A stretch of 64,000 nucleotides of DNA from a virus (IMGVR_UViG_3300028805_000057:64001-128000), one strand, 5' to 3'; counted from the stretch's first letter, positions 5,576 through 59,376 are shown. Made by a program: numbers and translations. Notes: a model not told the origin generated them from the letters alone.

Positions 5576-6101
5576 TCATGCTTTTCTTGGAGCAAGCACA
5601 CATGCATGGTTAAATGATGATCCTGCAAAACTTAAGAATCGATATTTAAGATGGCTTGCAAAAGAAAGAGGAACACGATTACATGATTTAGCAGCTCGAT
5701 TAATCAAAGAAGGTATTGAACTTCCACAAACAACTAAAACTTTTGATCAATATGTAAATGATGCAATTGGTTTTAGAATGAGGCCTGAACAAAAATTATA
5801 TTATAGTGATAATTGTTTTGGTACTGCGGATGCAATAGCCTTTGATGAAAAAATAAAGTTTCTACGAATTCATGATTTAAAGACTGGTGAGATTCCTGCA
5901 AAGATGGAACAGTTATATATTTATGCTGCTTTATTTTGTTTGGAATATCATCAGAAGCCTGGAGATCTTGGATTCGAATTACGAATCTATCAGAATAATG
6001 GAATTGATATTGCTAATCCTAATGCGGAGATTATATTACCGATTATGGATAAGATTATATCATTCGATAAATTAATTAACAACATTAAAGGAGAATTGTA
6101 A
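5541..6101 (+). CDS. PD-(D/E)XK (Cas4/DUF2800-like) nuclease
   Basis: HAFLGAS, GTRLH, FGTADAI..IHDLKTG..QLYIYA. Confidence 0.8.
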   Translation: MKWNDHFKLPSDHAFLGASTHAWLNDDPAKLKNRYLRWLAKERGTRLHDLAARLIKEGIELPQTTKTFDQYVNDAIGFRMRPEQKLYYSDNCFGTADAIAFDEKIKFLRIHDLKTGEIPAKMEQLYIYAALFCLEYHQKPGDLGFELRIYQNNGIDIANPNAEIILPIMDKIISFDKLINNIKGEL

Positions 6102-12208: not shown

Positions 12209-12559
12209 ATGGATGAGAGTATACTAACATCAATTAAAACTCAATTAGCTCTTATGCCAGAAGATGAATCATTTGACAGAGAGTTAATAATATTTATAAA
12301 TGCTGCGTTCGCTAGACTGACACAGCTTGGTGTTGGTCCAATGCCTCATTTCCAAATAGCAGATGATAGTACAACTTGGGATGAATATGTCACAGATATT
12401 ACACAAGAAGAAATGGCAAAAGTATATGTTTATCTCAAAGTAAAAAGATTATTTGACCCACCTGCTAATTCAACACTTGCAAAAGCAATTGATGAAGAAA
12501 TAGCAATGTATGAATACTTATTAAAAGTTGAAGCGGAGGATGATGCAGAATATGAGTGA
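12209..12559 (+). CDS. head-tail adaptor/connector
   Basis: SILTSIK..FD..IN..LTQLGVG..YVYLKVKRLFDPP pattern typical of this phage group. Confidence 0.65.
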   Translation: MDESILTSIKTQLALMPEDESFDRELIIFINAAFARLTQLGVGPMPHFQIADDSTTWDEYVTDITQEEMAKVYVYLKVKRLFDPPANSTLAKAIDEEIAMYEYLLKVEAEDDAEYE

Positions 12560-14276
12560 AGAAATGTTAGCAGTAATGCAAGAAGATGATCAGAATTCGC
12601 TTGAACATTATGGTGTAAAAGGCCAAAAGTGGGGACAGCGAAATTACCAAAATCCTGATGGTACTTATACGGATTTAGGAAAAGAAAGAAGACGAGTAAA
12701 ATTTATCCGAGAAGAGAAGGCTAAGAAAGAAGCTGATGCTAATGCGCATCAAAATGGTATTGAAGAATCAATTGATACAGATGTAAAGATTGGTGGCAAA
12801 GCATATAAGGATATGACTCGTAAAGAGCTCCGTGCTGCAAAGAAACGTGCAAGACATAACGAAGCTGAGCGTAGAGCACAGAGAGAATTTAATAGAGATA
12901 AAAAGCAAGCATTAGAAGATGGTGACATTGCTTTTATTTCAAAAAATATCAGCAAATTTACTAATGAAGAGATTGATGCAGCAATGGTTAGATACAAGAA
13001 AATGCAGGATTTGAAGAATCTTGATAAGGCTAACCAGAAAGATGCAAACCATTACATTGACAAAGCTTTACATTACTTGGATAAAGCAAGTCAAGCAAGT
13101 AAGTCAATCTCTAATATTGCAAATAACTTCAATGATATGTCTAAGAAGGCTGCTGAGAAGAAGAAAGCTTGGATAGATTATGAATATACCAAAGATCCTA
13201 GCTTAAAGCCTCTTACTGAGAAAGAGAAGCTTGATGTTGAGAAACAGAAGACTATTAATAAACAGTCAGAAGAAACTCTTGCTAAGATGAGAGAAGCAAC
13301 ATTACAAGAACAGGAAAAGACCAAGCAAGCGAGAATAGATTCTGCTAATAAACGTTCTTCACAGCAAGCTGAACTTACAGAGATTGAAGAAAAAGCAAGA
13401 AAAGCTCGTATTGATAACGATATGCTTGAACAAGAAGTAAGACAAAAGAAATTCGAAGCTGATCAGAAAGCAGTTGAGAGAGACCAGAAGAAATTTGATC
13501 TTGATATGCAGAAGAAAGCTGTAAAGGATCTTGAGAAAGCAGAAGATGATCTTAAGAAACAACTTAAAGACAGTATCAAACGAGAAATGACTTCTGAAGA
13601 GAAAGAACTCAGAGCAAAGTTAAAAGAAGTTGAAGAAGAGAAGAGAGAAGCTGAACGTAAAGAAAAAGAAGCACGTAGAGCAGAAAAAGAAGCAACTAAT
13701 AGAGCTAATGCTGAATTAAAAGAATATTTACGTAAGCTTGATGAGCAAGAAGAAAATGAAAAAGAACAGAGAAGATTAGAAAAAGAGCAAGCTAAAAAGC
13801 AAAAAGAGATTGAACGTACGATGCAAGAAGAAGCAAAGAATATTGCTAAACAGAATGAAGTTGAAAAACAATTAAATTCTATGACAAATGATGAATATTG
13901 GAATTTAATGTATTCTGGTCAGTCAAAGAATCAATCTAAACTTGGCTCATTCTTCTCTAAGAAAGATAAGGATAAAGTACATAAAGATAATAATCAGGAC
14001 TTTGATCCAGATGATAAAGGTGTTAATATTGTTACAAGAAAATACCTTAATCAGTTAAAAAATTCACCTAAAGATTACTTCAAAGAAAATCAGGTTCAAA
14101 CAGATCAGTGGAAGAAAGATCTGAAGAAGTATGATGCTGATGTAATCGATAAGTGGGTTAAAGATATGAAGAAGAAATATATGAAAGAAAGAAACATGGA
14201 TTCCAAAGCAGCTGAACAAAAAGCTGAGGAGTATGTTGATTCTTGGTTAGATGCCTATGACGAAGGCTTATTCTAA
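12528..14276 (+). CDS. leader-tagged coiled-coil protein (HYG module)
   Basis: SLEHYGVKGQKWGQRNYQNPDG followed by a long K/E-rich coiled coil; true start probably 12540-12552. Confidence 0.7.
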   Translation: MKRRMMQNMSEEMLAVMQEDDQNSLEHYGVKGQKWGQRNYQNPDGTYTDLGKERRRVKFIREEKAKKEADANAHQNGIEESIDTDVKIGGKAYKDMTRKELRAAKKRARHNEAERRAQREFNRDKKQALEDGDIAFISKNISKFTNEEIDAAMVRYKKMQDLKNLDKANQKDANHYIDKALHYLDKASQASKSISNIANNFNDMSKKAAEKKKAWIDYEYTKDPSLKPLTEKEKLDVEKQKTINKQSEETLAKMREATLQEQEKTKQARIDSANKRSSQQAELTEIEEKARKARIDNDMLEQEVRQKKFEADQKAVERDQKKFDLDMQKKAVKDLEKAEDDLKKQLKDSIKREMTSEEKELRAKLKEVEEEKREAERKEKEARRAEKEATNRANAELKEYLRKLDEQEENEKEQRRLEKEQAKKQKEIERTMQEEAKNIAKQNEVEKQLNSMTNDEYWNLMYSGQSKNQSKLGSFFSKKDKDKVHKDNNQDFDPDDKGVNIVTRKYLNQLKNSPKDYFKENQVQTDQWKKDLKKYDADVIDKWVKDMKKKYMKERNMDSKAAEQKAEEYVDSWLDAYDEGLF

Positions 14277-17430: not shown

Positions 17431-19842
17431 ATGAATCAAGACTACGATTTTGCCGGTTGGGCAACCAAAAATGACATTCTTTGTGAAGACGGTCGTGTTA
17501 TTAAGAAGGATGCATTTAAGGATTGCGATGGTAAACAGGTACCGTTAGTCTTCAATCATGATCACAAAGATGTTCAGAACTTTTTAGGACATTGTGTATT
17601 AGAAAATCGTGATGAGGGTGTTTACTGCTATGGCTATATAGACAAAGACACACCTGCAGGTCAGCAGGCTCTGAGTCTTATTAAACATGGAAGTTTGAAT
17701 TCTCTCTCGATTTATGCTAATAAACTTAAACAGATTGGTCATGATGTAATTCACGGTCTTATTCGTGAAGTTTCACTTGTACTTGCTGGTGCTAATTCAG
17801 GCGCTGTAATAGATACAGTATTAGCTCATGCAGAAGATGCAAGTGATATTGAAGGCGATGCTATGATAGTTTACGCTGGTGAAGAAAATCCTATTGAGCA
17901 TAGTTTTGATGATTCCGAGCACGAAGAAGAAATAGAACATTCAGCTGATGAGTCAGAAGATGATGAAGCAGTATTTGATTCTATGACAGATGCTCAGAAG
18001 AGACTTATGCTCAAAATGATGGGTATGGCTGCAGAAGATGCAGCAAATTCTACAGTTTCCCATTCTTCAAAAGATGCTGAGGAAGATGATGAAGATGACG
18101 ATGACGAAGACGATGAGTCAGAGTTAGAACATTCTAAAGAATCTTCTGAAGAGAATGAAGATAAGGATAAAAAGAAAGCTTGTTCACACAGCTTCTTACT
18201 TTTTGGTAATGATGATGAATTGAGTCATGCTTCAAAAGAAGAAGACGAAAAAGAAGAAACCAAAAATGAGGAAGATGATGAAGACAATGAAAACCTCGAA
18301 GATGCTGAAGAATCCGATGTAGAAGAGGATGACAAAGACGACGAGGAAGAAACAAATGATTCAAACAAAAATAATGAGAAGGAGAAAAAAGAAATGACTC
18401 ACAATTTATTTGAAAATCAGGCACAGAACGATGTTCTTATCCACAGCGCTGAAATGTGCAGCGAGATGATGGCAGATGCAGTTAAGTTTGGTTCACTTAA
18501 GGATTCCGTAATGGCTCATAGTGCAGATTACGGTATTGATAACATTGATTACCTTTTCCCGAATGCAAAGAATTACACCACTACTCCTGAGTTCATTAAG
18601 AGAAGAACTGAGTGGGTTAATGAAGTTCTTTCAGGCGTTCGTCAGTCACCTTTCAGCCGTGTTAAGACTATCTTCGCTGACATCACCGAGGATGAGGCTC
18701 GTGCTAAGGGTTACATCAAGGGTAACCGTAAGGCAGAGGAAGTATTCACTCTGTTAAAGAGAGAGACCACTCCTACTACCGTTTACAAGAAGCAGAGAAT
18801 TGATCGTGATGATATTATCGATATCACTGACTTCTCAGTTATCGAGTATATCAAGGCAGAGATGAGAATTATGTACGATGAGGAATGTGCACGTGCAATC
18901 CTTGTTGGTGATGGACGTAATCCTCTTAGCCCTGACAAGATCAAGGAAGCTAACATCAGACCTATCTGGACAGATGATGATCTGTTTACAGTTAAGAGAG
19001 CAATCGCTGTTACTACAGCTACAACTGATCAGGCTCGTGCTAAGGCATTTATCAAGAACCTTGTTAAGTCAAGAAAGCTTTACAGAGGTTCAGGTAATCC
19101 TACACTCTTCATCGCTGAGGACCTTCTTGCTGATATGCTCCTTATCGAGGATGAGATGGGACGTCTTATCTATGATGACATCAACAAGCTTAAGAACACT
19201 CTTCGTGTTAACAAGATTGTTGAAGTTCCGATCTTTGATGGTCTTATGAGAATAGACAATGGCGATACCAAGTATCTTGCAGCTATTCTTGTTAATCTTA
19301 ATGACTACAGAACTGGCCGTGATCGTGGTGGCGAGCTCAGCTTCTTCGATGATTTTGATATCGACTTCAACCAGCAGAAGTATCTTATGGAGTCAAGATT
19401 CTCAGGTGCTCTTGTTCTGCCTTATTCAGCAGTTGCATATGAGTTCGTTTACAATCTTACTCTTGATATCCAGGCAGAGGACAGCACTACTGTTGTTCTT
19501 GGCAAGCAGGTATCTGAGCTTCAGGAGAATGTATTCGTTAATGAGAACTCTGTACAGGGTATCCTTAACTATGTAACTGGTTATACTCAGTTCTCAGATT
19601 CACCTGAGCTTCAGGAAGGTCACTATCTTGCACTTAAGTTCGAGGCATCTGATGGAGCAACTGTTACTATCCAGACTATCGGTGGCGTAGATGATGCAAG
19701 AGTCGTTACTCTTGATCAGGATATGAATTCAGTTACTTATGTTAAGTCTACAAAGGAGAAGCTCAGAGTTACTTGCTCACTTAACGGCGACGTTATCACA
19801 AGAACTATCACCTTCAGTGGCTTAAAGCTTCTTGCTGAGTAA
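17431..19842 (+). CDS. prohead protease-scaffold-major capsid fusion with C-terminal extra domain
   Basis: N-terminal HK97-type protease (PLVFNHDH, SLSI, EVSLVLAGAN), acidic linker, capsid fold (FFDDFDIDFNQQKYLMESRFSGAL), C-terminal beta-rich extension. Confidence 0.9.
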   Translation: MNQDYDFAGWATKNDILCEDGRVIKKDAFKDCDGKQVPLVFNHDHKDVQNFLGHCVLENRDEGVYCYGYIDKDTPAGQQALSLIKHGSLNSLSIYANKLKQIGHDVIHGLIREVSLVLAGANSGAVIDTVLAHAEDASDIEGDAMIVYAGEENPIEHSFDDSEHEEEIEHSADESEDDEAVFDSMTDAQKRLMLKMMGMAAEDAANSTVSHSSKDAEEDDEDDDDEDDESELEHSKESSEENEDKDKKKACSHSFLLFGNDDELSHASKEEDEKEETKNEEDDEDNENLEDAEESDVEEDDKDDEEETNDSNKNNEKEKKEMTHNLFENQAQNDVLIHSAEMCSEMMADAVKFGSLKDSVMAHSADYGIDNIDYLFPNAKNYTTTPEFIKRRTEWVNEVLSGVRQSPFSRVKTIFADITEDEARAKGYIKGNRKAEEVFTLLKRETTPTTVYKKQRIDRDDIIDITDFSVIEYIKAEMRIMYDEECARAILVGDGRNPLSPDKIKEANIRPIWTDDDLFTVKRAIAVTTATTDQARAKAFIKNLVKSRKLYRGSGNPTLFIAEDLLADMLLIEDEMGRLIYDDINKLKNTLRVNKIVEVPIFDGLMRIDNGDTKYLAAILVNLNDYRTGRDRGGELSFFDDFDIDFNQQKYLMESRFSGALVLPYSAVAYEFVYNLTLDIQAEDSTTVVLGKQVSELQENVFVNENSVQGILNYVTGYTQFSDSPELQEGHYLALKFEASDGATVTIQTIGGVDDARVVTLDQDMNSVTYVKSTKEKLRVTCSLNGDVITRTITFSGLKLLAE

Positions 19843-46957: not shown

Positions 46958-47206
46958 ATGACAACTCTCGAGGTAGGGAAAACATACAAAAACATACAAA
47001 GCGGAAGGACAGTAGTGATTCTGGGAAGACTGGACACTCTGGCTAAAGAAGGTTGTTTATTGGCAGAAGATAAAATGTATGGTGTAATTTTACCAATCTT
47101 TAATGAAGATCCTAAGAATTGGGAGTTATTACCTAATTCTCCTTCTGTCAAAGATATTATTAAAGAAAGGGGAATCAGTAAGCATGAATATAACACCTCA
47201 ACGTGA
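46958..47206 (+). CDS. hypothetical protein
   Basis: AAGGAGG RBS before MTTLEVGKTY (track 46931). Confidence 0.5.
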   Translation: MTTLEVGKTYKNIQSGRTVVILGRLDTLAKEGCLLAEDKMYGVILPIFNEDPKNWELLPNSPSVKDIIKERGISKHEYNTST

Positions 47207-47942
47207 TGCTAAGCCTTATTATGTCGAAGTGAGAGATAATCTTACGCAATATGTCTGGAATATGAATTATCCAACTATTATTACACAAGATACTATCAAT
47301 AAAGCATATAGAGATTGGTATCATAATACAAATGGTAATGTTGGTAAATATAACAAAGCATACTATGATAAGAAACTAAGAGAAGGAGAAGGTAAGCCTG
47401 GTAGTGACTGTTCTGGTATGCATTATGGATTAAGTGGCTATGATAAAACAGCACAGGGGTATTACGATGAATCACCAGAAGACAAAAAAGGAACCATTGA
47501 TAGTATTCCTATTCATGATCTGGTTATTTTGTACCGTGGTCAATCTAAAAGCAAAATAACTCATACTGGTATTTATCTTGGTAATGGAATGACAATACAT
47601 ATGGCTAACTCTACTGATAATTGTATATATGAAACTACAGATGCAGGTAAATGGAAATGGTGGAGTTATGCTAAATTTATTGATTACTCCAAACCATTAG
47701 GAGCAAAACCAATAATCACCAGAGTAATCAAAATAGGTAATAAAGGTATTGATGTTAAACTTTTACAAGACCAGTTAATTAAAAAAGGCTATGATCCTGG
47801 AAAGATTGACGGTGATTTTGGTTCAAAAACCTATACTGCTCTTAAACATTTCCAAGCAGACAATAATATAGCTGTTGATGGTATTGCAGGAAAACAAACT
47901 GTTAAATCTTTGGGGATGCTGTGGAGAGGCGGTTCTTATTAA
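47184..47942 (+). CDS. endolysin: NlpC/P60 peptidase + peptidoglycan-binding domain
   Basis: DCSG..HTGIYLG..IH; G..G.DVK.LQ..L...GY..IDGDFG..FQ..VDGIAG; start 47184 (track 47103). Confidence 0.88.
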   Translation: MNITPQRDAKPYYVEVRDNLTQYVWNMNYPTIITQDTINKAYRDWYHNTNGNVGKYNKAYYDKKLREGEGKPGSDCSGMHYGLSGYDKTAQGYYDESPEDKKGTIDSIPIHDLVILYRGQSKSKITHTGIYLGNGMTIHMANSTDNCIYETTDAGKWKWWSYAKFIDYSKPLGAKPIITRVIKIGNKGIDVKLLQDQLIKKGYDPGKIDGDFGSKTYTALKHFQADNNIAVDGIAGKQTVKSLGMLWRGGSY

Positions 47943-48157: not shown

Positions 48158-48300
48158 AAAATATTATGAACATAACCATGTAGAAAATCGCATGGGATTT
48201 ATTCATAAATATTTACAAACAAATATTATGAACAGAACCATACCAAAAAACTGCATGGGATTTATTCATAAATATTTACAAACAAATATTATGAACAGAA
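48158..48300. repeat. 62/63-bp tandem duplication spanning a start codon
   Basis: AAATATTATGAACA three times (ATGs at 48166, 48228, 48291); GCATGGGATTTATTCATAAATATTTACAAAC twice. Confidence 0.85.
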
Positions 48301-49859
48301 TAATGTTTTATAATAAACTAGATAAGTTTAAGAAAAACCTAGAAGAAAAAAATAGTTTAGAACATAGATTTAGTGATCACGATGGTGTTGATAATAAACT
48401 TGATACTAATGGAAATAGACCCAGAGAAGTTCATACGAATGAATATAAGGGCACTTTTAATAATACTAGACGTGGTAATTTATCTAGAGCAACTAAACCT
48501 AAGTCTAATTATGGACAGAGTTATTATACAAAGATTGATAAATATTATCCTGATGGTACTGCTAGATACTTCTATTCAAAAGATGAATATGAAGCATATC
48601 AAAATGGGCAGGTGAAAGGTAATAGTGCTAAACATCTTGATCAAATGATGAAAGAAACTGCTGAGAGAAAAGTTATCGAAGATAAAAAGAAACAACAAGA
48701 AGAAATCTATAGAAAGAATAAAGAAGCAGATGAAGCAAGAGTTAAAGCAGAACAAGAAAAATATGCTAAATTACGTGCTGAAAATAACAAACAAAAACCT
48801 AAGACAAGAGAAGAAGCTGAAAAAGAAGCTATAAAAAGAGAACAAGAAAGAATAAGAAAAGCTGATATTGAAGCTAACAAGAAACCTGAAACTAAGGCAC
48901 TTGAACAAGCTGAAGATGAATTAGTAAAACTTAAAGGAAAACAGAATCTTGCTAAGAATCGTGGTTTAGATGACAAAAACAATAAGAAAGAATATGATAA
49001 GTTGACTAAAGAAATCGAAGCAAAAGAAAAAGAAATTGCTTCAATAAGAAAGAAGATGGCTGATGAAACATTAGCGAATAGAGATAAAGAAATTAAAGAA
49101 GCTACAAAAAGAGAGCAAGAAAGAATAGAAAAAGAAGCTACTGAGAAACTTGAAACTTGGAAAGAAAATATTAAAGATAATATCAATGATTATGCTCTTG
49201 AAGTATATGATAATATTAAGAGATGCGCAAATGATAGAGATGTTTCTTTTAATGTAGATAATCCATTTGTAGATTTATTTAAAGAAGCTCTTAAGAAATA
49301 TGATCCAGACTTTGATGGAGATATCGCAGCATACGTGAGACCTTATCCTGGACAAAGTATTGCAGGTATACTTGGCAGTGAATTACTTAAAGATGATAAA
49401 CATACCAAGATTGCTAAGAAAGTTCTTAATGAATTAGAAGATAATTTAGATAAAACTATTGATAAATATACTATTAATGATGAACAATATGATGATTTCT
49501 TAGATCATCTTAAAGGAAAACAGGAAAAGAATAAAACTGCAGCTATTGATAAAGAAATGGATAATGCAAGAAAATCACTTGAAGCAATGTATAATGGTGA
49601 TGAAAACAGTATTAATCTTGATAAATCTCTTAAGAAAGTACTTGAAACTAAACTTAAAGAAATTGACCCTGAATATGAAAAAGGTAATCTTTATAAATAT
49701 GTAAGACCTTATATTCTTGGTAAATGGTGGAAAGATGATGAATCATATGCTAAAGTTACGGAAGCTCTTAATGAACTTGAAAAAGAATTAAGATCTGCAA
49801 ATAAACATGATGATGCATATGGTGATTTTGTTGAAAAAGTTTCAAAAATACTTGCATGA
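48291..49859 (+). CDS. leader-tagged coiled-coil protein (YYxKID..RYFY module)
   Basis: MNRIMFYNKLDKFK leader, SLEH, YYTKIDKYYPDGTARYFYSKDEYEAY; internal repeat (LK..DP....G....YVRPY). Confidence 0.7.
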   Translation: MNRIMFYNKLDKFKKNLEEKNSLEHRFSDHDGVDNKLDTNGNRPREVHTNEYKGTFNNTRRGNLSRATKPKSNYGQSYYTKIDKYYPDGTARYFYSKDEYEAYQNGQVKGNSAKHLDQMMKETAERKVIEDKKKQQEEIYRKNKEADEARVKAEQEKYAKLRAENNKQKPKTREEAEKEAIKREQERIRKADIEANKKPETKALEQAEDELVKLKGKQNLAKNRGLDDKNNKKEYDKLTKEIEAKEKEIASIRKKMADETLANRDKEIKEATKREQERIEKEATEKLETWKENIKDNINDYALEVYDNIKRCANDRDVSFNVDNPFVDLFKEALKKYDPDFDGDIAAYVRPYPGQSIAGILGSELLKDDKHTKIAKKVLNELEDNLDKTIDKYTINDEQYDDFLDHLKGKQEKNKTAAIDKEMDNARKSLEAMYNGDENSINLDKSLKKVLETKLKEIDPEYEKGNLYKYVRPYILGKWWKDDESYAKVTEALNELEKELRSANKHDDAYGDFVEKVSKILA

Positions 49860-49875
49860 AAGGAGAGTGATTAAG

Positions 49876-50145
49876 ATGGATACATCAAGTATTGCAGTAA
49901 TTATTGTGGCATTAATCGGCGCAATAGCAACAATAACATCAAATATTGTAATGAACAACAAACAGTCAGCAGCAATGGATGCTAAGTTGGATAAGCAGCA
50001 AGGAATTATTGAAGAACGACTAAGTAATTTAAAAGAATCAGTCGATAAACATAATAACTTTGCTCAGAAAATCCCAGCAATCGAAGCAAATATTGAAAAC
50101 ATTGAAAAACGAATCGACAAATTAGAAAGTAAATTAATAAAGTAA
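49876..50145 (+). CDS. membrane-anchored coiled-coil protein (holin/XhlA-like)
   Basis: IAVIIVALIGAIATI TM segment, VDKHNNF; AGGAG RBS (track 49807). Confidence 0.6.
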   Translation: MDTSSIAVIIVALIGAIATITSNIVMNNKQSAAMDAKLDKQQGIIEERLSNLKESVDKHNNFAQKIPAIEANIENIEKRIDKLESKLIK

Positions 50146-50158
50146 GGAAGGAGTCAAA

Positions 50159-50311
50159 ATGGATAGAAATACATTCTTTGATAATCTAAAAAGTTATAAT
50201 GCTAACTCCTTACATAATAATATTACTAACAAACATGCTAGTAATAGATTCGAGTTTTATGATTCATTACAACACCATGGAATGAGAGGAAGTAAAAAGA
50301 AATCAAAATAG
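50159..50311 (+). CDS. 50-aa leader-only microprotein
   Basis: Not in track; AAGGAG RBS; MDRNTFFDNLKSY...NRFEFYDSLQHHGMRGSKKKSK. Confidence 0.6.
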   Translation: MDRNTFFDNLKSYNANSLHNNITNKHASNRFEFYDSLQHHGMRGSKKKSK

Positions 50312-50325
50312 GGGGTTAAATAATC

Positions 50326-51207
50326 ATGGATAGTTTTGAATTTTATTATAATCTTGATTCATATAATAAAAACTCCTTGAGACATAAATCGGAGTCCTCT
50401 CTTAAAGGTACACAAAAAGAAAATGTTAAATACTTTAAGAGAGAAGGTACTCCTGGTAATTACAAATATTATTATACAAAAGAAGAATACGAAGCTTCTA
50501 AGAAACCTGAAAATAAAGTAGATGTTGTAACAAATGTTAAACCTACTTTACAAGCTAATAAAACTTTTAATAAGAAAAAGAAAGTATCTCATAAGTCATT
50601 ATATACACCTATGCAACAAGCTAAGAAAATAAATAATGCTAAGATGAATAAACAATATGATAAGAAATTTGTAGATGTTGTACAAGGTAAAGATAAAATG
50701 ACATCTGAGGAAAGAGTAGAAGAATATAAAAACTATTTACAAGATCCTGAGAATTACAATGAAGATACATATATAGAAAACAGATTAACAAAACTTGGTG
50801 AAGGTGGAAATGTTAATCTTAATCTTCGACCTGAGATTTCTACACAAGAATTAATAGATGCAAAATGGCCTGAAAAAGAAGTAGGCGAAGGATACGCTAC
50901 AGTATTTTCAAGTACATTTTCAAATGAAGGTGACACAGAATTTTATAACTTTACTCCGATTGTTATGGATCCTAAAACTGGTGAGTATCTTGGTTGTATG
51001 GATCCTGAAGAATTTAAACAGTATTGTTATGATGTAATTGATGGTATAAGAGAAGATGATAAGAATTGTCAAATAGGTGGAGCATTTACTGGTGAAAATG
51101 CAAAAGATTTGGCAGAAAAAGCAGCTATAGAAATTCATGATTTACATGAACAGCAACATGTTAATGAAGAGAATAAAAAGAAAAATAAATCAAACAATTC
51201 AAAATGA
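50326..51207 (+). CDS. leader-tagged protein (KY..YYYTKEEY module)
   Basis: MDSFEFYYNLDSY..SLRH..KYFKREGTPGNYKYYYTKEEYEA; C-terminal domain not recognised. Confidence 0.7.
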   Translation: MDSFEFYYNLDSYNKNSLRHKSESSLKGTQKENVKYFKREGTPGNYKYYYTKEEYEASKKPENKVDVVTNVKPTLQANKTFNKKKKVSHKSLYTPMQQAKKINNAKMNKQYDKKFVDVVQGKDKMTSEERVEEYKNYLQDPENYNEDTYIENRLTKLGEGGNVNLNLRPEISTQELIDAKWPEKEVGEGYATVFSSTFSNEGDTEFYNFTPIVMDPKTGEYLGCMDPEEFKQYCYDVIDGIREDDKNCQIGGAFTGENAKDLAEKAAIEIHDLHEQQHVNEENKKKNKSNNSK

Positions 51208-51225: not shown

Positions 51226-52143
51226 ATGTTACAAAAAGAATTCTATACAAAATTAGAAATGGCAAGACAAAAGCAGGACTCCTTACAACATCATGGTATT
51301 AAAGGTCAGAAGTGGGGTGTAAGGCGTTTCCAGTATATGGATGGTTCTTACACCCAAGCTGGCCGTGAAAGATATGGTTATGGTCCTGCAAGACAACCAA
51401 AACAAGAAGATGATAAAGTTGGTGTTATGATACCTATTCCTTCAGCTGCAGTTCCACCAATATTGGCTGCTGGTGCTGCTATTTTAGGAGTAGAATTAGG
51501 ATTATCTACAATAGGTGATGCTATACATAATGCTAAAGTTTCGAAAGATATTAAGAATTGGGAGGCAAATCGAGCAAAAGAAGAAACTGATCCTAAGACT
51601 GGTCTTAAACTTAAATCTGATCCAAATGCTTCTGTTAAAGATGATATGAAAATGATTAACAGAGAATATGGATATGGAATGTTTGCTAAGGCGATTTGGG
51701 ATATTGATTCAAAGAAATCAATGGGTCATACAGAAAATTGTATGCTTTGTACAACTGCTTTGGATCTTAAGAGAAGAGGATATGACGTTAAAGCCGGTTC
51801 AAGTAAAGATGGATACTATGCTAAAGATGTTGCTAATTGGTATAAAGAAAAGAAACAACCTACTATGGGCAAATTTAATAGCATTATAGAACAGCTTAAT
51901 AAACAACCTGAAGGTTCTTATGGAAACTTTATGGTATACTGGAAAGAAGGCGGTGGGCATTCTATGTTTTACAGGATTGAAGGTGGTAAACCTGTAATAT
52001 ATGATGCTCAGTCTAACAAGAATTATACAATATATGAAATTTCAAATCATATAAATAATTCAATTCCAGGACATTGTTTCTTAAGAACAGATAACTTAAC
52101 ACCGGATTACGATTATTTAAAGAAGAATAATATTATAGCCTGA
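51226..52143 (+). CDS. leader-tagged papain-fold (Tox-PL-like) effector 1
   Basis: SLQHHGIKGQKWGVRR, hydrophobic segment, NCMLC..RGYDVKA..GGHS..IYDAQ. Confidence 0.72.
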   Translation: MLQKEFYTKLEMARQKQDSLQHHGIKGQKWGVRRFQYMDGSYTQAGRERYGYGPARQPKQEDDKVGVMIPIPSAAVPPILAAGAAILGVELGLSTIGDAIHNAKVSKDIKNWEANRAKEETDPKTGLKLKSDPNASVKDDMKMINREYGYGMFAKAIWDIDSKKSMGHTENCMLCTTALDLKRRGYDVKAGSSKDGYYAKDVANWYKEKKQPTMGKFNSIIEQLNKQPEGSYGNFMVYWKEGGGHSMFYRIEGGKPVIYDAQSNKNYTIYEISNHINNSIPGHCFLRTDNLTPDYDYLKKNNIIA

Positions 52144-52269
52144 ACGAAGTAAAAAGCTCAGCCTGTGATTGATTTTGAGCAGGGTGGCATAGAACGAATG
52201 TTTAGGATAAAGAATTTGGTTTTCAGAATGAAAAGCAATTATTATTGCATAGGAGGGTTCAAAATAAGT

Positions 52270-53871
52270 ATGAATAGATATGAATTCTATGGAAATATTA
52301 ATACATACAGAAAAAATCAATCAAATAAAGAAAATGAATTAACTCACTACGGAACTCTCGGTCAAAAATGGGGTGTTCGTAAGTGGCAGAACTATGATGG
52401 TACTTTTAATGAGGCTGGTAAGGAAAGATATTTTGGAACTAAGAAAGCTAAAAATGAAGAAAAAATAAATTCAAAATATCAAAATAAAGATGGTTCTTTA
52501 ACACAAGAATATATAAATAAAATTCAAAAATTAACTAATGAAGGTAAATTTGATGAAATTGAAAAACTTAAAAAACAAATAGATTTTGATAAAGTACAAG
52601 AATGGTCTAAGAAAACAAATCCGAATTTATATAAAATGCCAGATTTTAGTGATCCTTCAGAATATGAAGGAGATTTTGAATCATATGTTGAAGATAATTG
52701 GGAAACTGCAGCTAAGAAAAGAGGGTTCGATCTTGATGATATTTTAACAGATGAACAATATGAAATAATTAATCAGGATATGAAGGATTATTTTAATAGT
52801 CATGAAGAAAAAATAGGTTCTGTCTTTAATAAAAATTTAAGTGAAGAAAAGAAAGATAAATTACGAGAAAAATTATATTCACGTGATAGTGAAATGCTTA
52901 CTATAGATCAATTATATGATGAAGATGAACAGAAATATTTATTAAATAAAAAAGTTTCTAAAAAAGTTAATAAATTAGTTGATTGTTTGACTAAAGGTGA
53001 TTTTGATGAATATAATAAAATATTAGAAGATGTTGACCCAGAACATTTACAAACAGTAAAGAATGCTGCACAAGATTTAGCCAATACAAAACAATTAAGA
53101 AATGTCGATACATCTAGATTAACTGAAGTTTCAAAAGATATTTTTGGAAATGATAATATATTAGGTGTTCAAAGTATTCTTGCAATGACAAATAGTGATG
53201 ACATTAATGCACATTCATCAAATAGAGTGTATCCAGTAGATATACGACAGTCAATTATAGATAATAGTACTCTATTAAAAACTGCTATATTAGAATATGA
53301 AAGAGGCTATAAAGATGGATACGAAAGAGATATACAAATTGCTTCTGGCGGTGATGAACGCCGTGCAAAATATATGAAACAGTTTGTTGATGATGTCGAA
53401 GCTGTTAAAGAATACTCTAAAGATTCTAAAGAAATTAATGATGAATTACGTAAGTTAAAAACAAAAGAATCTTGTGACGATAAAGCTTTTATTAATTATC
53501 ATTATACAGAAGCTTTATATGATAATATGCGTAAATATATAAATGATGATTTTCCTGTAAGACTTAAAAAAGGAACAAATGATGCTAAGAAAATGGTTAA
53601 TAATCTTTATAAAAACTTTGAAAAATATTCAAAAGAATTTAAAGAAGATTTATATTATCAATTATTAGATTACTATGATGATGAATATATTTCAAAATCT
53701 GAATTTATGAAAGAAATAGGAAAAATCAATGCTGTTGAAATGTATGGTAATGGTAATATAACTTTTACTTATACAGTACCAGGTGAAATGGGATATGATA
53801 TGGTTAATATAAATGGCAATATAAACGATAATGGGAAACTTACAATAGATGATGCTGATTTTATTGATTAA
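52270..53871 (+). CDS. leader-tagged protein, paralog of 55409..56923
   Basis: MNRYEFYGNINTYR..ELTHYGTLGQKWG; AGGAGG RBS before ATG 52270 (track 52165). Confidence 0.72.
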   Translation: MNRYEFYGNINTYRKNQSNKENELTHYGTLGQKWGVRKWQNYDGTFNEAGKERYFGTKKAKNEEKINSKYQNKDGSLTQEYINKIQKLTNEGKFDEIEKLKKQIDFDKVQEWSKKTNPNLYKMPDFSDPSEYEGDFESYVEDNWETAAKKRGFDLDDILTDEQYEIINQDMKDYFNSHEEKIGSVFNKNLSEEKKDKLREKLYSRDSEMLTIDQLYDEDEQKYLLNKKVSKKVNKLVDCLTKGDFDEYNKILEDVDPEHLQTVKNAAQDLANTKQLRNVDTSRLTEVSKDIFGNDNILGVQSILAMTNSDDINAHSSNRVYPVDIRQSIIDNSTLLKTAILEYERGYKDGYERDIQIASGGDERRAKYMKQFVDDVEAVKEYSKDSKEINDELRKLKTKESCDDKAFINYHYTEALYDNMRKYINDDFPVRLKKGTNDAKKMVNNLYKNFEKYSKEFKEDLYYQLLDYYDDEYISKSEFMKEIGKINAVEMYGNGNITFTYTVPGEMGYDMVNINGNINDNGKLTIDDADFID

Positions 53872-53907
53872 AATTTTTTAAAAGAAAAATCAAAATGGAG
53901 GAATATT

Positions 53908-54177
53908 ATGGGCAATGACTTAGTAGGTCAGGCTATTGAAGCTATGAAAAAATATAGACCTGAAAAAACAGTAATAAAGATTTGGAATAAAGGTAAGTCA
54001 TGTCTTATACTTGCTGCAAAGAATCCTAAAGAATACCAAATGGAGATGGATCCTTATTATATATTTGCTGAGGGTGCTATCTCCGGTATCTCTTATTTGG
54101 ATAATGCTGTCAAGTTAAAAAAGATAATGAAACCAGAGTATATAGCATACACTCGAAAGGAGCTTGGAAATGAATAG
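53908..54177 (+). CDS. small protein, putative immunity/partner 1
   Basis: Paralog of 55131..55391 (KKYxP..AK..DP(Y/F)Y..G..G); no leader. Confidence 0.6.
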   Translation: MGNDLVGQAIEAMKKYRPEKTVIKIWNKGKSCLILAAKNPKEYQMEMDPYYIFAEGAISGISYLDNAVKLKKIMKPEYIAYTRKELGNE

Positions 54178-54231
54178 CTATACTATACAAAAAGCGTATA
54201 GCAGATCCATTCATTATGAAAGGAGTAATAA

Positions 54232-55119
54232 ATGAATAGAATAGAGTTTTATTCAAGTTTAAATAAATATAAAGATATTCAAGAGAAATCTGATAATGAA
54301 TTAAAACACTATGGCATAAAAGACCAGAAATGGGGTGTAAGACGTTGGCAGAATCCTGATGGTACATTTAATGCTGAAGGTAAGTTAAGATATTTCGGTG
54401 CTCAGCCTAAAGAAGGTAGTGTAACTGCACTTGCTGGTGTATTTGCTCTTTGGGGTGCAGAATTAGCTTTGTTAGTTGGCGGACCAGTGACTGCATATGC
54501 AATACAAGATGCTAAAACTACAAATAAAATAAAGAAATTTGAAGCAAATTTAGCAACAGAAAAAACAGATCCTGAAAGTGGATATAAATTAAAGAATGAA
54601 AAAATGTCTAAAAATACTACAAAAGAAGACATGTCATATGTAAATATGGAACAACAATATGCTGGTATGAAACAAAAGAATAGAGATGCTAAAGAAGGAA
54701 CTAGTATGAATTGTTCTTTATGTACTACTGCAATGGTTCTTAGACAAAAAGGATATGATGTACGTGCTGGTAAGACTAAAGAAGGTACATCATATCAAGA
54801 ACAAGAAAAACGTTATAAAGGTGGCAAGTTTACATTAGGAACATTCAAAGATATTATAAAAGAACTCGAAAAACAACCTGAAGGTTCTTACGGACATTTC
54901 TCTGTTGAATGGAGAGAAGCTTATGGTGGAGCTCATAGTATGTTTTATAAGATTGAGAACGGCAAACCTGTAATATATGATTGTCAAGTTAATCAAGTTG
55001 TTAAACCGAAAAATTTATATAAAAATGCTTCGCCTCTTGAAGATAAGACTAAGTTTATGAGATGTGATAATCTCGAAGTTAATTGGGATTATATAAAAGA
55101 GAATAAACTTGTACACTAG
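54232..55119 (+). CDS. leader-tagged papain-fold (Tox-PL-like) effector 2
   Basis: ELKHYGIKDQKWGVRR, hydrophobic segment, NCSLC..KGYDVRA..GAHS..IYDCQ. Confidence 0.72.
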   Translation: MNRIEFYSSLNKYKDIQEKSDNELKHYGIKDQKWGVRRWQNPDGTFNAEGKLRYFGAQPKEGSVTALAGVFALWGAELALLVGGPVTAYAIQDAKTTNKIKKFEANLATEKTDPESGYKLKNEKMSKNTTKEDMSYVNMEQQYAGMKQKNRDAKEGTSMNCSLCTTAMVLRQKGYDVRAGKTKEGTSYQEQEKRYKGGKFTLGTFKDIIKELEKQPEGSYGHFSVEWREAYGGAHSMFYKIENGKPVIYDCQVNQVVKPKNLYKNASPLEDKTKFMRCDNLEVNWDYIKENKLVH

Positions 55120-55130
55120 GAGGAAATAAT

Positions 55131-55391
55131 ATGAATATAATAGATGAAATTAAAGATGCTTTCAAAAAATATAATCCTGATTTATATGTAATAGCAATAT
55201 TTATTGCAGAAAAAGATTTATATTTTGTAGTTGCAAAACATACTCCCGATAAAACAACAGTTGAAGAAGATCCTTTCTATATGTATGGAAATGGAAAAGT
55301 TACTGGTGTTACAATAACAGATTCTGAAGAAAGAATGAATAATGCATTTGAAATTATGCAAGCAAAGAATCGTATTTATGAAATTGATTGA
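55131..55391 (+). CDS. small protein, putative immunity/partner 2
   Basis: Directly after effector 2; paralog of 53908..54177. Confidence 0.6.
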   Translation: MNIIDEIKDAFKKYNPDLYVIAIFIAEKDLYFVVAKHTPDKTTVEEDPFYMYGNGKVTGVTITDSEERMNNAFEIMQAKNRIYEID

Positions 55392-55408: not shown

Positions 55409-56923
55409 ATGAATAAAATAGAATTCTTAGCAAATATAGATAAATATAAAGGCGAAGATCATTCTACTTTCCTTCAGCATTACGGAATCTTAGGACAAAA
55501 ATGGGGACAGCGTAGATGGCAAAATCCTGATGGCACTTTTAATGAAGAAGGTAAGCAAAGATATTTTGGTCAGAAATCAAACAATATAAGTTCTGAAGAA
55601 AAGATTGGTGGTTATACTGCAGATCATTTTCACAAAAATATTTATTTAAAGACTGACAAGAATACTCTTAAGAAAATTAAGAAGTATCCTGATATATATG
55701 ATACAGAAGGTTTAACTGATGATGAAATATTAAAAGCTGTTAGACGTGTTCCTAAGATACCTAATGCTAGAGCATATGGTAGAGAAATTAGAGAAGAACT
55801 TTATAATACTCAATTGAATAAGACAAGATCTAAGTATTACGAGACAAATACTAAAGATATTCTTGAAGCTGAAGATGTTGAAGAGCAAAAGATTGGTGGT
55901 TGGACAGATCATGGTAAAAAGATTGATGAATTATATCCTAATGATAATGGACATTTATATAGTGATAATCTTTACACATCTGATGAACAAGAATATTTTA
56001 TGAATGAAAAAAATGCTAATAGAATAAATAAAATGGCTAAGTATGCTATGGAAGGTAATACTAAAAAGTATGATAAATTAATGGATAAAATTGATGACAA
56101 ATATAAAGATACAGTAAGAAGAGCAGTTCTTGATATTGAAGATGGTATAGATAATAAAGCTAATAATAAAAAAGGCAGAGAACTTTCTAAAGAAATAGGA
56201 CTTGGAGAAGTTGATTTAAATGCAATATTAAGAAATCGATATAAAGATGATGAACGAATGTATTCAATTAAAGATCGTGATATGATTCGTAATAATATGG
56301 ATACTATAATGACAGCAGTTAAGAAACTTAAAAATCAAGATATTAATGGATATTATGATGAAGTTGAAAAGATAGCTCGTACTGGTGAAGATAAAGATAC
56401 TATTGATAGATTTGTAGATGACTATATTAGTATTAAATCATATATTGATGAAGGTAAAAAACTAGATAAAGAATTAAAAAATATGAAAAATATTCAAAGT
56501 AAATGTAAATATCCAATTGATTATGATACAGACGCAAGAGACTTTATGTTCTCAGAATATACAAAAGACTATAGATCAATTCAAGAAAAGATGCAAGATC
56601 CTAAAATACATAGAGACGGACAAAAAGTTATTAATAATCTTAATAAAAACTTTGATAAATATGTTGATCAATTTAAAGATAAAGTTGTTGAAAATCTTTA
56701 TGAAGATTATAAAGATTGGCATGCTGATGATGACAAGATACTATCTAAACAGCAATTTAAGAATGCCATTGGTAAAGTAAATAGTGGTAGTATTGATGAT
56801 ACTGGATATTTACAATTATATCTTGAAGATAATGGTTTATTCTATGGACATGTATTTACAAGTCTTGGAGTTATAGATGATAACGGTAATCTTAAAGTTG
56901 AAGATGTATTCTTAGAAGGTTAA
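55409..56923 (+). CDS. leader-tagged protein with DUF2262-like C-terminus
   Basis: MNKIEFLANIDKYK..FLQHYGILGQKWG; ends DNGLFYGHVF..LEG; start 55409 (track 55388). Confidence 0.7.
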   Translation: MNKIEFLANIDKYKGEDHSTFLQHYGILGQKWGQRRWQNPDGTFNEEGKQRYFGQKSNNISSEEKIGGYTADHFHKNIYLKTDKNTLKKIKKYPDIYDTEGLTDDEILKAVRRVPKIPNARAYGREIREELYNTQLNKTRSKYYETNTKDILEAEDVEEQKIGGWTDHGKKIDELYPNDNGHLYSDNLYTSDEQEYFMNEKNANRINKMAKYAMEGNTKKYDKLMDKIDDKYKDTVRRAVLDIEDGIDNKANNKKGRELSKEIGLGEVDLNAILRNRYKDDERMYSIKDRDMIRNNMDTIMTAVKKLKNQDINGYYDEVEKIARTGEDKDTIDRFVDDYISIKSYIDEGKKLDKELKNMKNIQSKCKYPIDYDTDARDFMFSEYTKDYRSIQEKMQDPKIHRDGQKVINNLNKNFDKYVDQFKDKVVENLYEDYKDWHADDDKILSKQQFKNAIGKVNSGSIDDTGYLQLYLEDNGLFYGHVFTSLGVIDDNGNLKVEDVFLEG

Positions 56924-56936
56924 GGGAGGACCCTAA

Positions 56937-59330
56937 ATGACTAACAAAGAAATTCATGAAATGATTAAAAAATATGAATCAAAATGGGGACGACTTGGGC
57001 ATACTAATATTATGAGACCTGAATTAAATCACTCAGGAGAAGAAGGAGGAACAACAATGTCAAGCATGACTAATGATTTAATAGCATTTAGACAGAAAGT
57101 TGCTGCAGGTAGAGAAGCTAATAGACTTGCTCATAAATCAACTGTCAATGTTACAGATATTAATAGAAGATATTTTGAAGAGATTACCACAAATGGTACT
57201 TTGATACATGCTGGAACTAATCAGCAAAACTACAAATACTATCAGAAGATAGATCTTGGTAATGGTCAGTCAAGATATTTCTATACTAAGGAAGAATGGG
57301 ACGCTTACCAGAATGAAAAGAATGGTAAGAAACAGTCTACCGGTGGCGCTGAGAAAGTTCGTCAGATGCATAATGAGAAAGAATCTAATCTCCAGGGCAT
57401 GATTAAAGATGGCGATTACTATGAAAAAGGTGAAGATGGTAAATTCCATAAGACTGATAAGAAATGGGATGATGTTAGAAAGCAGGCCATTGAAGAAGCT
57501 GATAACAAGATAATTGATGCTGCTAAAGAAGGTGGATATGAAGCTGCTAAGAAAGCTATCTTTGATGATGATCGTATGCTTGAAATGTTTGGCCAGTTTG
57601 AAGGCGGATTTGAGAATCATGGCTGGGAGCTTAATGATGATGACTCGATTACTGGTATGGATGATAATGATGAAAAGTACTTCAAGGAAATGGAAACTTG
57701 GCTTCGTAGCTTCAAGGATTCTACCGGTATAGATATTTATAAGAATCCCGATTTCCAGAAGTCTGTAATGGATGAAATTCGTAAGAGATATAATCTTATG
57801 AAGAATCAGGCTAAGGAAAGAGAATCAAAAATCGAAGGAACTAAGAAGTATGCTACTCCTGAAGGTGCTGGTAAGAAGTCTGAAGAGAAGAAAGAAGAGA
57901 CCACTAAGTCTGAAGAGAAGAAAGAAGAGACCACTAAGACCGAAGAGAAGAAGACTGAATCTAATAGCGGATCAGACTTTGATAAGAAGTTGAATGAAAC
58001 CATTACAAATGAAGGTTCTGATGCCACAGCTGATTATATCATTAATAACTCACCTGAATTTAAGGCTTATGCAAATGCTCTTCGTAAGGCTGTTGCTGAT
58101 GGCAAGATTAAAGTATATCGTGATGGCGGAATGACTGGTAAGGAAAATAAAGAACTTGCTAGCACATTTGATCCGTTACTCGAAGACCTTGATGCTTTAT
58201 TACAGAAAGCTGCTAAGAATCCAGACTTTGATCGTAAGGGTGTTGAGAAGCTTATCAATAAGGAATTTGAGAATATTGCTGCAGCTGCAACAGAGGATAA
58301 ATATGGTGTAAGAGACAATACTAAGAAGTTTGTAAAACATTCCTTAGAAGAGCCTGAAATCATGGATGAGTATTCAGCATTTATGGAAAGAGTTAAGAAG
58401 GGTAGAGAAAAGAATAAACTTGCTCATTCTATAATGATTTCTCCTTCTGATTTAAATGCTAGATACGAGCAGTCCATTAAAGATCATTGTTTCTTAATTC
58501 ATAGTGGCAATTTCAAGTATTACAACAAGATTGACTTAGGTAATGGTAATACAAGATATTTCTATACTAAGGCCGAGTGGGATGCTTATCAGAGAGAAAA
58601 GGGTTCTAAGACTAATACTGATCAGAAGCTTTCCAAAGAAACTTTAAAGCAGATCGAACAGCAAAAGCAGAAGAAAGCAAACTATGATAATAATGCTGAA
58701 GCTGCTAAACATGAAGGCGACAGATGGCAGAAGAAAGAAGAGCCTAAGCCTAAAGTTACTGTTGAAACAATTGTAGTTGATGTAAAGAAAGATCCTAATT
58801 TTACAAAAACTGTAGATACTGTTAAAGCAGCAATTGATAATGGAGATATATCATATGTATATGATAAGCCCATTGTTAATATTGATAAGAAAACTGGTAA
58901 ACTAAGTGAAGCTGGTATGAAAGCTAATGAAGCTTGGCAGAATCTCTATAAGTCATTTAATGATTTATCGTCAAAGAATAAAGAAAATGGTTTATCATAT
59001 GAAGATGTTAAAGGCGCTTTAATGGATGCTTTTAATTCTGAATTAAAGAAAGCTCAATCTTCAAATAAGTCTGGATCTGATGATAAGCCAAAAGATTCAA
59101 ATCCTGATAACTTAGGCTTTGATAAGATGAAAGAAGGAATGACTCAGGAAGAATTTAATAAGGCATTGAAGGATGCTAGAGATTCTATTGATTTCGATAA
59201 GATGACAAATGAGATATCCGAAGTTATCAATGACCAGTTCAAGAATGTGGATCAAAGCGTTCTTGATGGCATTAAAGATCAGGTAACAAAAGAAACTGAA
59301 AAAATGTTAAAGAATAAATTAGGTTTCTAA
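56937..59330 (+). CDS. polyprotein-like leader-tagged protein with two KYYxKIDLGNG modules
   Basis: Duplicated AF..V..GRE.N.LAH..LIH(A/S)G..KYY.KIDLGNG..RYFYTK.EWDAYQ; seven hydrophobic-x-His sites. Confidence 0.75.
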   Translation: MTNKEIHEMIKKYESKWGRLGHTNIMRPELNHSGEEGGTTMSSMTNDLIAFRQKVAAGREANRLAHKSTVNVTDINRRYFEEITTNGTLIHAGTNQQNYKYYQKIDLGNGQSRYFYTKEEWDAYQNEKNGKKQSTGGAEKVRQMHNEKESNLQGMIKDGDYYEKGEDGKFHKTDKKWDDVRKQAIEEADNKIIDAAKEGGYEAAKKAIFDDDRMLEMFGQFEGGFENHGWELNDDDSITGMDDNDEKYFKEMETWLRSFKDSTGIDIYKNPDFQKSVMDEIRKRYNLMKNQAKERESKIEGTKKYATPEGAGKKSEEKKEETTKSEEKKEETTKTEEKKTESNSGSDFDKKLNETITNEGSDATADYIINNSPEFKAYANALRKAVADGKIKVYRDGGMTGKENKELASTFDPLLEDLDALLQKAAKNPDFDRKGVEKLINKEFENIAAAATEDKYGVRDNTKKFVKHSLEEPEIMDEYSAFMERVKKGREKNKLAHSIMISPSDLNARYEQSIKDHCFLIHSGNFKYYNKIDLGNGNTRYFYTKAEWDAYQREKGSKTNTDQKLSKETLKQIEQQKQKKANYDNNAEAAKHEGDRWQKKEEPKPKVTVETIVVDVKKDPNFTKTVDTVKAAIDNGDISYVYDKPIVNIDKKTGKLSEAGMKANEAWQNLYKSFNDLSSKNKENGLSYEDVKGALMDAFNSELKKAQSSNKSGSDDKPKDSNPDNLGFDKMKEGMTQEEFNKALKDARDSIDFDKMTNEISEVINDQFKNVDQSVLDGIKDQVTKETEKMLKNKLGF
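57876..57953. repeat. 30-bp in-frame tandem repeat (KSEEKKEETT)
   Basis: AAGTCTGAAGAGAAGAAAGAAGAGACCACT twice plus a partial copy. Confidence 0.8.
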
Positions 59331-59340
59331 AAATCAAAAT

Positions 59341-59376
59341 GGGTACCTGGATAATTTCTGGGTACCCTTATTTTTT
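59341..59376 (+). terminator. rho-independent terminator
   Basis: GGGTACCTGGA/TCTGGGTACCC stem followed by TTATTTTTT. Confidence 0.75.

Follow-up and report, generated by a model that had tools for sequence, protein, structure and literature searches.

What would two toxin-like genes, each with a small partner gene, be doing in the late region of a phage genome? The question is raised by positions 51226–55391 of a 64,000-nucleotide stretch of viral DNA (the window), which comprises bases 64001–128000 of one 147,894-bp IMG/VR virus record (IMGVR_UViG_3300028805_000057; G+C 31.6%; completeness 100% by CheckV), from a phage of gut bacteria. Two paralogous genes, toxA and toxB, encode papain-fold domains, and two further paralogs, smallA and smallB, encode small partner proteins. 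Coordinates are those of the window, in which all noteworthy genes lie on the plus strand. On balance, and with some reserve, we favor the view that toxA and toxB are cysteine enzymes loaded inside the head of the phage and then injected, with cytoplasmic inhibitors, in the manner of MuF-Tox-PL1 toxins but with another tag and a new partner family. The core idea of a phage head-associated Tox-PL1 toxin with its antidote has been published since 2012 (PMC3482391). Judging from sequence, the present system would differ in carrying a DUF7211 tag in place of MuF and a partner family other than Imm35.

The assignment of toxA (305 aa; 51226–52143) and toxB (295 aa; 54232–55119) to the Tox-PL1 family is supported by Pfam, signature and fold. 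The two proteins are 40% identical across their full length (E 8e-68). With 35.1 bits for toxA and 33.2 bits for toxB, both exceed the gathering score (24.1) of the Pfam family Gln_amidase (PF15644; Papain fold toxin 1), and both copies were recovered again in a search of the whole genome. The family signature, NC-H-DxQ (Zhang et al., 2012, PMC3482391), is intact in each. Across 84 homologues, N171, C172, H245 and Q262 (toxA numbering) are invariant and D260 is nearly so (at least 90%); none of the five varies in an alignment of 18 sequences to which both paralogs belong. An AF2 model of toxA has a mean pLDDT of 82 and exceeds 90 over most of the domain. It places C172 in helix 169–183, H245 in strand 244–252 and D260 in the neighboring strand 255–260, in keeping with a papain-like alpha+beta fold.

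Comparison of the modeled toxA domain (residues 127–296) with known structures using VIA returned SpvD (Z 11.7), a chain of 8brf (10.3), C39 peptidases (about 9), staphopain (8.8), Cpe1 (9l5u; 8.8), CdiA-CT (8ssm; 8.7) and the deamidase OspI (8.3). The nearest folds are cysteine proteases. These matches do not discriminate between protease and deamidase; glutamine deamidation is only one possible activity. Profiles of the toxin and partner families, searched against the sequences in the PDB, gave chance-level matches only (protein kinase A, E 0.09; CD8, E 0.03).

The domain is the last of several parts. toxA consists of a leader (residues 1–19), an [L]-x-H sequence with a DUF7211 motif (20–50), a hydrophobic segment (about 64–100) and the Tox-PL1 domain (about 127–296), and toxB has the same layout. 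Kyte-Doolittle averages over 19 residues peak at 1.78 in toxA (from residue 71) and at 1.97 in toxB (from residue 64). An earlier note on this DNA had proposed a shared Cys-His-Asp signature in the products of 51226 and 54232, a hydrophobic stretch ahead of each domain and a match to Tox-PL. All three proposals are borne out: the reading frames are real, both paralogs carry the signature, the hydrophobic segments are present, and the Pfam scores and the papain-like fold of the model agree. Its further description of the domains as glutamine deamidase-like holds as far as Tox-PL1 membership goes, but the nearest folds are those of cysteine proteases and OspI reaches only the Z score given above.

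The small genes are candidates for keeping these enzymes in check. smallA (89 aa; 53908–54177; family profile E 1.7e-21) and smallB (86 aa; 55131–55391), which begins 11 nt past the toxB stop codon behind a GGAGG site and also matches the family profile, are 28% identical (E 9e-12). Both have strong Shine-Dalgarno sites, and neither has the shared leader and tag, a signal peptide, a hydrophobic N-terminus or a transmembrane segment; lacking a signal peptide and a transmembrane segment, they would act in the cytoplasm.

We examined how strictly this family is tied to Tox-PL1. Open reading frames (ORFs) were called mechanically, and an iterated profile run over all 4713 ORFs from 82 sources (the window, locus L001 and 80 viral loci) converged with 25 members. 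A profile rebuilt from a 26-sequence alignment of the family found 30 members in the viral loci, every one of them in a locus that carries a Tox-PL1 gene. Twenty-three of these begin within about 200 bp past the toxin domain, and in many cases the stop codon overlaps the start codon. Three others form the N-terminal part of the toxin polypeptide itself, and four lie immediately upstream of the toxin gene. In an independent set of 74 bacterial-genome loci, 17 of 20 members adjoin a toxin, and the remaining three lie beside divergent Tox-PL-like proteins that keep a GH...D.Q pattern. Across the 156 phage and prophage loci in total, all 50 members are adjacent to or fused with a Tox-PL1-type gene. 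Conversely, in five of five near-complete phages that have DUF7211 proteins but no Tox-PL1 gene, the small family was also absent, with both searches positive in the present genome. These data support an evolutionarily conserved and specific link, as expected of a toxin-immunity pair. The earlier note had described two leaderless paralogs of 86–89 aa and suggested a toxin-immunity pairing. The description was correct, and the linkage speaks for the pairing, but by sequence the partner is not Imm35, the known immunity family of Tox-PL1.

The partner family is large and carries no Pfam name. An exhaustive search found about 940 clusters at E up to 0.001, mostly standalone proteins with a median length of 83 aa; this search is the source of the family size, as a word-indexed search with the same profile gave only 39 unnamed proteins. 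In 11 of the best 146, the small domain is joined to the N-terminus of a DUF7211 protein, and Tox-PL1 is part of three of these fusions. When 26 members were compared with Pfam by hmmscan (E up to 1), there was no convincing match and Imm35 was not listed; one member matched PepSY weakly (E 0.17). The AF2 model of smallA (pLDDT 86.5) is an alpha+beta fold in which a helix (residues 5–16) is followed by an antiparallel sheet. Foldseek and VIA searches with this model gave nothing above noise, with cystatins, YpmB and other PepSY-type proteins at Z 3.4–5.0, and looking up smallA in the ESM Atlas added no information.

Which small gene goes with which toxin is less obvious from the window, where the order is toxA, bigA, smallA, toxB, smallB, bigB and the small genes are placed differently around their toxins. 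bigA (533 aa; 52270–53871) encodes a leader, a DUF7211 motif recognized by Pfam and a DUF2262-like C-terminus; we placed its start at ATG 52270, which has a GGAGGG site, in correction of GTG 52165. Its paralog bigB (504 aa; 55409–56923; 29% identity) likewise has a leader, DUF7211 (26 bits) and DUF2262 (Pfam, 32 bits versus 29.8). Related loci clarify the arrangement. In L084, toxA, smallA, toxB and smallB follow one another with nothing intervening, and in L085, where toxB is absent, the smallA orthologue directly follows the toxA orthologue; the smallA orthologues of both loci start MGN[DN]LVG.... The slot of bigA is empty in these two loci and is taken by other, unrelated cargo genes in L001 and L082. 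Because smallA directly follows toxA in relatives, we assign smallA to toxA and regard bigA as an insertion; smallB, close behind toxB, is taken as the partner of toxB. A conserved three-gene module of toxin, large DUF2262 protein and small protein was considered and rejected, given the relatives in which toxA and smallA are adjacent or other genes fill the slot. bigB appears from its sequence to be a neighboring cargo gene, and its membership in the toxin pair is not supported. The literature search yielded no paper on DUF7211 or DUF2262 and one classification paper for PF15644.

How might the toxins reach a host cell? DUF7211 is found at the start of both toxA and toxB. The phage has at least four more proteins with it, namely bigA, bigB and a pair encoded near the terminase gene. 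Against the 25-residue Pfam model (PF23847; cut-off 27 bits), toxA scores 29.4 bits and toxB 25.5, slightly below the cut-off, although the motif is plain in the toxB sequence. The two proteins near the terminase both match phrog_32444 and show the motif in their sequences; they are encoded at 10621–11976 (451 aa) and 12528–14276, shortly before the large terminase gene, and the latter also matches Pfam DUF7211. The 10621–11976 protein in addition matches the PHROG entry 'GTP-binding domain' (phrog_289, E 8.7e-7) and has no Pfam match.

The motif reads [LI]-x-H-[HY]-G-[IV]-[KL]-G-[QM]-K-W-G-V-R-R-[YF]-Q-N-x-D-G-[ST]-L-T-x-A-G-[KR]-x-R-Y and was found in 248 proteins across the 82 sources, with up to nine such proteins per locus and the motif usually near residue 14. 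Eleven are polyproteins with two to four motifs. One such protein (L006:1571–4654; 1028 aa) has four DUF7211 units, each after Y-L-[EA]-H, contains several hydrophobic segments and ends in Tox-PL1; in the gene that follows it, the small partner domain is fused to another tagged protein. In phages of 35–65 kb, DUF7211 genes are grouped around the terminase and portal genes, and in relatives the toxin-partner pair lies between these two. Where a bacterial record gives the host, it mostly belongs to the gut Clostridia (Oscillospiraceae, Lachnospiraceae, Ruminococcus, Faecalibacterium), and many toxin relatives are in prophages within bacterial contigs of such hosts. Hydrophobic segments are present in 30% of DUF7211 proteins versus 8% of other ORFs.

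The content of the tagged proteins was examined with Pfam. Of 148 related cargo proteins, 143 match the DUF7211 model; 22 of the 148 match Gln_amidase, a frequency biased upward by retrieval of the loci with a toxin-containing query, two match GNAT, and nine other families received single weaker matches. A classical toxin repertoire among these proteins was not borne out.

The tag is preceded by a short sequence that recurs in the phage head. L or I stands at position −2 before the invariant His in 208 of 208 motifs. The phage encodes an 803-aa protein (17431–19842; PHROG head maturation protease and major head protein) that joins a head maturation protease to the major capsid protein through an acidic, scaffold-like linker, and between its protease and capsid domains (residues 131–363) are nine [LIVM]-x-H sites, most of them in the acidic linker. 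In 62 distinct homologues of this fusion, which are related and non-independent sequences, 353 of 431 linker His residues (82%) have L, I, V or M at −2; composition alone would give 19%, and the capsid part has 27%. The relatedness of the sequences makes the nominal p-value too favorable, yet the pattern is a strong one. Next to the linker His, on its C-terminal side, there is mostly S, A, G or N.

In phage T4, [LI]-x-E sites for the gp21 protease mark both the scaffold proteins and the leaders (capsid targeting sequence) of injected internal proteins and Alt. Because the His motif recurs in the scaffold linker, and by analogy with T4, we read [LIVM]-x-H as a head-protease site, and the [LI]-x-H before DUF7211 is probably cleaved by that protease, which would bring cargo and protease together within the procapsid. 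As in the T4 proteins, a short N-terminal leader ending in [LI]-x and a defined residue occurs on several unrelated proteins, and the site recurs in the scaffold. Unlike in T4, the site ends in His rather than Glu and is followed by a conserved 30-residue module, and cleavage and packaging are putative here, being predicted from sequence alone. Alt is mentioned in PMC5512222.

The short DUF7211 tag thus probably loads the toxins into the virus head for injection. The steps that we infer are packaging, cleavage, injection, inhibition and the action of toxA and toxB on a target. Both proteins, as papain-fold Cys-His-Asp enzymes, would be made late in infection as tagged cargo. The N-terminal DUF7211, with the [LI]-x-H that precedes it, would steer them into the procapsid, where the head protease would trim them at [LI]-x-H, and at the next infection they would leave the head together with the DNA. 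The hydrophobic segment may keep them at the membrane. Once in the new host cell, they would cleave or deamidate a cytoplasmic target to the benefit of the phage. In the producing cell, smallA and smallB would act as cognate cytoplasmic inhibitors and hold each enzyme inactive until it is enclosed. Fused forms, in which the partner is followed by [LI]-x-H, DUF7211, a hydrophobic segment and Tox-PL1, would be zymogen-like, and in temperate relatives the small partners could also protect lysogens.

The closest precedents are the MuF polymorphic toxins of temperate phages, which include MuF-Tox-PL1 fusions (Zhang et al., 2012, PMC3482391; Jamet et al., 2017, PMC5576092) encoded beside terminase, portal and capsid genes (PMC3482391). 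Like these, toxA and toxB would be head-module proteins with a conserved N-terminal head-associated module, a C-terminal Tox-PL1 domain, a small gene downstream and a proposed delivery with DNA. Unlike in MuF toxins, the N-terminal module is the 25–30-residue DUF7211 motif, many proteins per genome carry it and some are polyproteins, this phage shows no integrase, and the partner family is unnamed. At E up to 0.1, neither toxin gave a MuF-type (SPP1 gp7-like) match in Pfam, and the only N-terminal match was to DUF7211. Imm35 is a partner family specific to Tox-PL1 and a proposed peptidase inhibitor (Zhang et al., 2012, PMC3482391); the toxin family is the same as here, but none of 26 small-family members matches Imm35 by sequence, and any relation would be a distant one at the level of fold. 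A further parallel is offered by Cpe1-Cpi1, a papain-like cysteine protease toxin and its immunity protein from type VI secretion system (T6SS) and contact-dependent inhibition (CDI) systems (PMC12136450; PDB 9l5u). It shares with the present pair a papain-like Cys-His-Asp domain (Z 8.8, rmsd 3.5 over 122 residues) and a small cytoplasmic partner, but Cpe1 has no sequence-level relation to toxA, is delivered via T6SS or CDI in Gram-negatives, and cleaves GyrB and ParE.

A cultured relative of the system is found in the Gordonia actinophage Secretariat (NC_048876.1), between terminase and portal. In its tagged set (L165, 1369–7886), gp12 is a 2H-phosphoesterase (LigT-like) with DUF7211, gp14 and gp17 are tagged, and gp15, annotated as an acetyltransferase, contains two DUF7211 motifs, GNAT and a Tox-PL1-like domain (Gln_amidase 23.7 bits, cut-off 24.1). 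gp16, annotated as a hypothetical protein, is a member of the small family (E 6.9e-12). Together, gp12 and gp14–gp17 surround the terminase gene (gp13), upstream of the portal. Secretariat differs from the window phage in its actinobacterial host and in the fusion of the toxin to a GNAT domain. Faecalibacterium phage FP_oengus is a further cultured carrier.

Could the Tox-PL1 domain instead serve the phage itself? In this main rival explanation, it would be a processing peptidase for DUF7211 polyproteins or head proteins, acting in assembly or release, with the small protein as a pro-domain-like inhibitor that sets the timing. Zhang et al. (2012, PMC3482391) proposed such a role for phage-linked Tox-PL1, and gp4 of Arthrobacter phage Bumble, an N-terminal part followed by Tox-PL1 (Pfam, 32.8 bits), is annotated as a capsid maturation protease in a genome whose portal-to-scaffold interval contains no other protease-annotated gene. 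The existence of polyproteins with two to four DUF7211 units, the occurrence of the small domain as a pro-domain-like N-terminal fusion, and the resemblance of the toxA model to C39 leader-cleaving peptidases (Z about 9) are all compatible with this role. However, all five near-complete DUF7211 phages lack Tox-PL1, whereas the same search finds both copies here, and this phage has a head protease domain of its own. Two diverged paralogs, each with a diverged partner, also fit diversifying toxin-antidote pairs better than a housekeeping protease, and we consider the processing role unlikely, if deserving of serious attention. Less likely still are three other readings. Cell-wall hydrolysis, by virion-associated NlpC/P60-type enzymes that open peptidoglycan at entry, is very improbable: the papain-like superfold is common to NlpC/P60 and amidase effectors (MepS, Z 5.5–5.7; Tse1 in the Foldseek list) and the hydrophobic segment could position the enzymes at the envelope, but cell-wall enzymes rank far below cytoplasmic-target proteases among the fold matches, a partner lacking a signal peptide would inhibit in the cytoplasm, where there is no cell wall, and a separate NlpC/P60 endolysin is encoded at 47103–47942.

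The other two readings assign the proteins to competition or to assembly. Tox-PL1 is best known from secreted polymorphic toxins (PMC3482391), many relatives are in prophages of gut Clostridia, and the adjacent small gene is conserved, all of which would suit toxins released or delivered from infected or lysogenic cells against neighboring bacteria, with the small proteins as kin immunity. Nevertheless, toxA and toxB have no known secretion domain or signal peptide, their genes have late and structural genes as neighbors (terminase and portal in the smaller phages, on either side), and the 100% complete phage record contains no tyrosine or serine recombinase (integrase), as judged by a search in which both controls were positive; we find this improbable. 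We have similarly little expectation that the small proteins are chaperones or adaptors, rather than inhibitors, that keep a membrane-prone enzyme soluble or pass it to the procapsid. The strict toxin-partner link by itself carries no hint of mechanism, the toxins do have a hydrophobic segment, and fusions of the small domain with the cargo protein that comes next are known. Hydrophobic segments, though, occur in 30% of DUF7211 proteins, yet the partner is found only with Tox-PL1-type genes. Such specificity suggests that what the partner goes with is the catalytic domain, and not the tag or the hydrophobic segment.

Several points weigh against our preferred reading of head-loaded, injected enzymes with cytoplasmic inhibitors. 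Beyond Tox-PL1 and a few GNAT or LigT domains, most DUF7211 proteins have no recognizable enzyme domain, and the set is not a typical polymorphic-toxin repertoire. Cleavage at [LI]-x-H is suggested by recurrence of the motif in sequences that are related and non-independent. The fold matches of the partner are within noise (best Z 5.0), and it is synteny alone that points to an inhibitor. The partner domain is fused N-terminally to the toxin or to the next cargo protein in some phages, a natural fusion being found at L021:5599–7050, which would be unusual for a classical immunity protein and would fit a cleavable pro-domain. Finally, as this phage shows no integrase, protection of lysogens cannot be the role of the partner here.

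The surrounding genome is that of a phage to which a nucleotide search with a 13-kb region found no match among 50,697 phage records. Library matches identify the large terminase (14295), portal (16058), a 2538-aa tape measure protein (23880) and a Dp-1-type holin (46571), and Pfam identifies the endolysin at 47103–47942 (NlpC/P60 and PG_binding). A YonO-type single-subunit RNA polymerase (6101–9025) matches phrog_4291 over its full length and has a helix-turn-helix-like C-terminal tail (about residues 930–972). Downstream of the lysis genes, in the late region, the toxin and partner genes are part of a compact run at 48.3–59.3 kb with gaps of 11–54 nt and a single exception of 126 nt. A GGAGG-type site precedes all genes of the run except the first (48291), and a strong hairpin with a T-run (59341–59367) closes it. 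This was the sole notable hairpin, terminator-like sites being unenriched (3 versus 3.9 expected), and a promoter scan was at chance level (76 observed versus 74 expected).

Other cargo genes of the run show variations on the same plan. Those at 48291–51207 and 56937–59330 share the leader M-N/D-R-x-E-F-Y..L..Y...L-x-H, but the KWG module is swapped for a second motif, Y-Y-x-K-...-G-x-x-R-Y-F-Y-T-K-E-E-[WY]-x-A-Y-Q, of which a 797-aa protein has two units; the leaders of the 48291 and 50326 genes also end in [LI]-x-H, though without the KWG part. The leader-type start at 48291 has no Shine-Dalgarno site, and directly upstream of this first cargo gene is a tandem duplication (48192–48300) with the repeated peptide MGFIHKYLQTNIMNR in a long ORF. 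A 50-aa ORF with a strong ribosome-binding site (50159–50311) contains nothing beyond a doubled leader and a truncated L-Q-H-H-G start and may be a remnant of cassette exchange. The small protein at 49873–50145, with an N-terminal transmembrane helix (Kyte-Doolittle 2.36) and a coiled coil, is kept at the same place within the post-lysis cargo run in L001, L082, L084 and L085.

A broader reading can be put forward only tentatively. DUF7211 with [LI]-x-H might be a general, MuF-independent address-and-cleavage tag by which siphophages of Clostridia and Actinobacteria load effectors for injection into the head in sets (Tox-PL1, GNAT and LigT-like bodies, along with many unknown ones), with the head protease cutting after His in both cargo and scaffold linker. 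The small family might then be a new class of papain-fold inhibitors, and the fused forms might carry it as a pro-domain that is removed inside the capsid, so that the enzyme is active only once enclosed. We think that this generalization is possible but doubtful.

Phage-delivered proteins decide the first minutes of infection, yet the known signals for loading them are few and comprise the capsid targeting sequence of T4 and carriers that are MuF or portal-bound. DUF7211 is borne by hundreds of proteins, both in phages that infect dominant gut Clostridia and in actinophages available in culture, and the putative cleavage motif that recurs in the capsid scaffold amounts to a directly testable rule for loading and processing, for which Secretariat is a ready experimental model of the tagged set. 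The small partners, which form about 940 clusters and have no model in Pfam, would make up a new family of inhibitors acting on papain-fold enzymes, and the Tox-PL1 enzymes would give a handle on the host targets of these phages.

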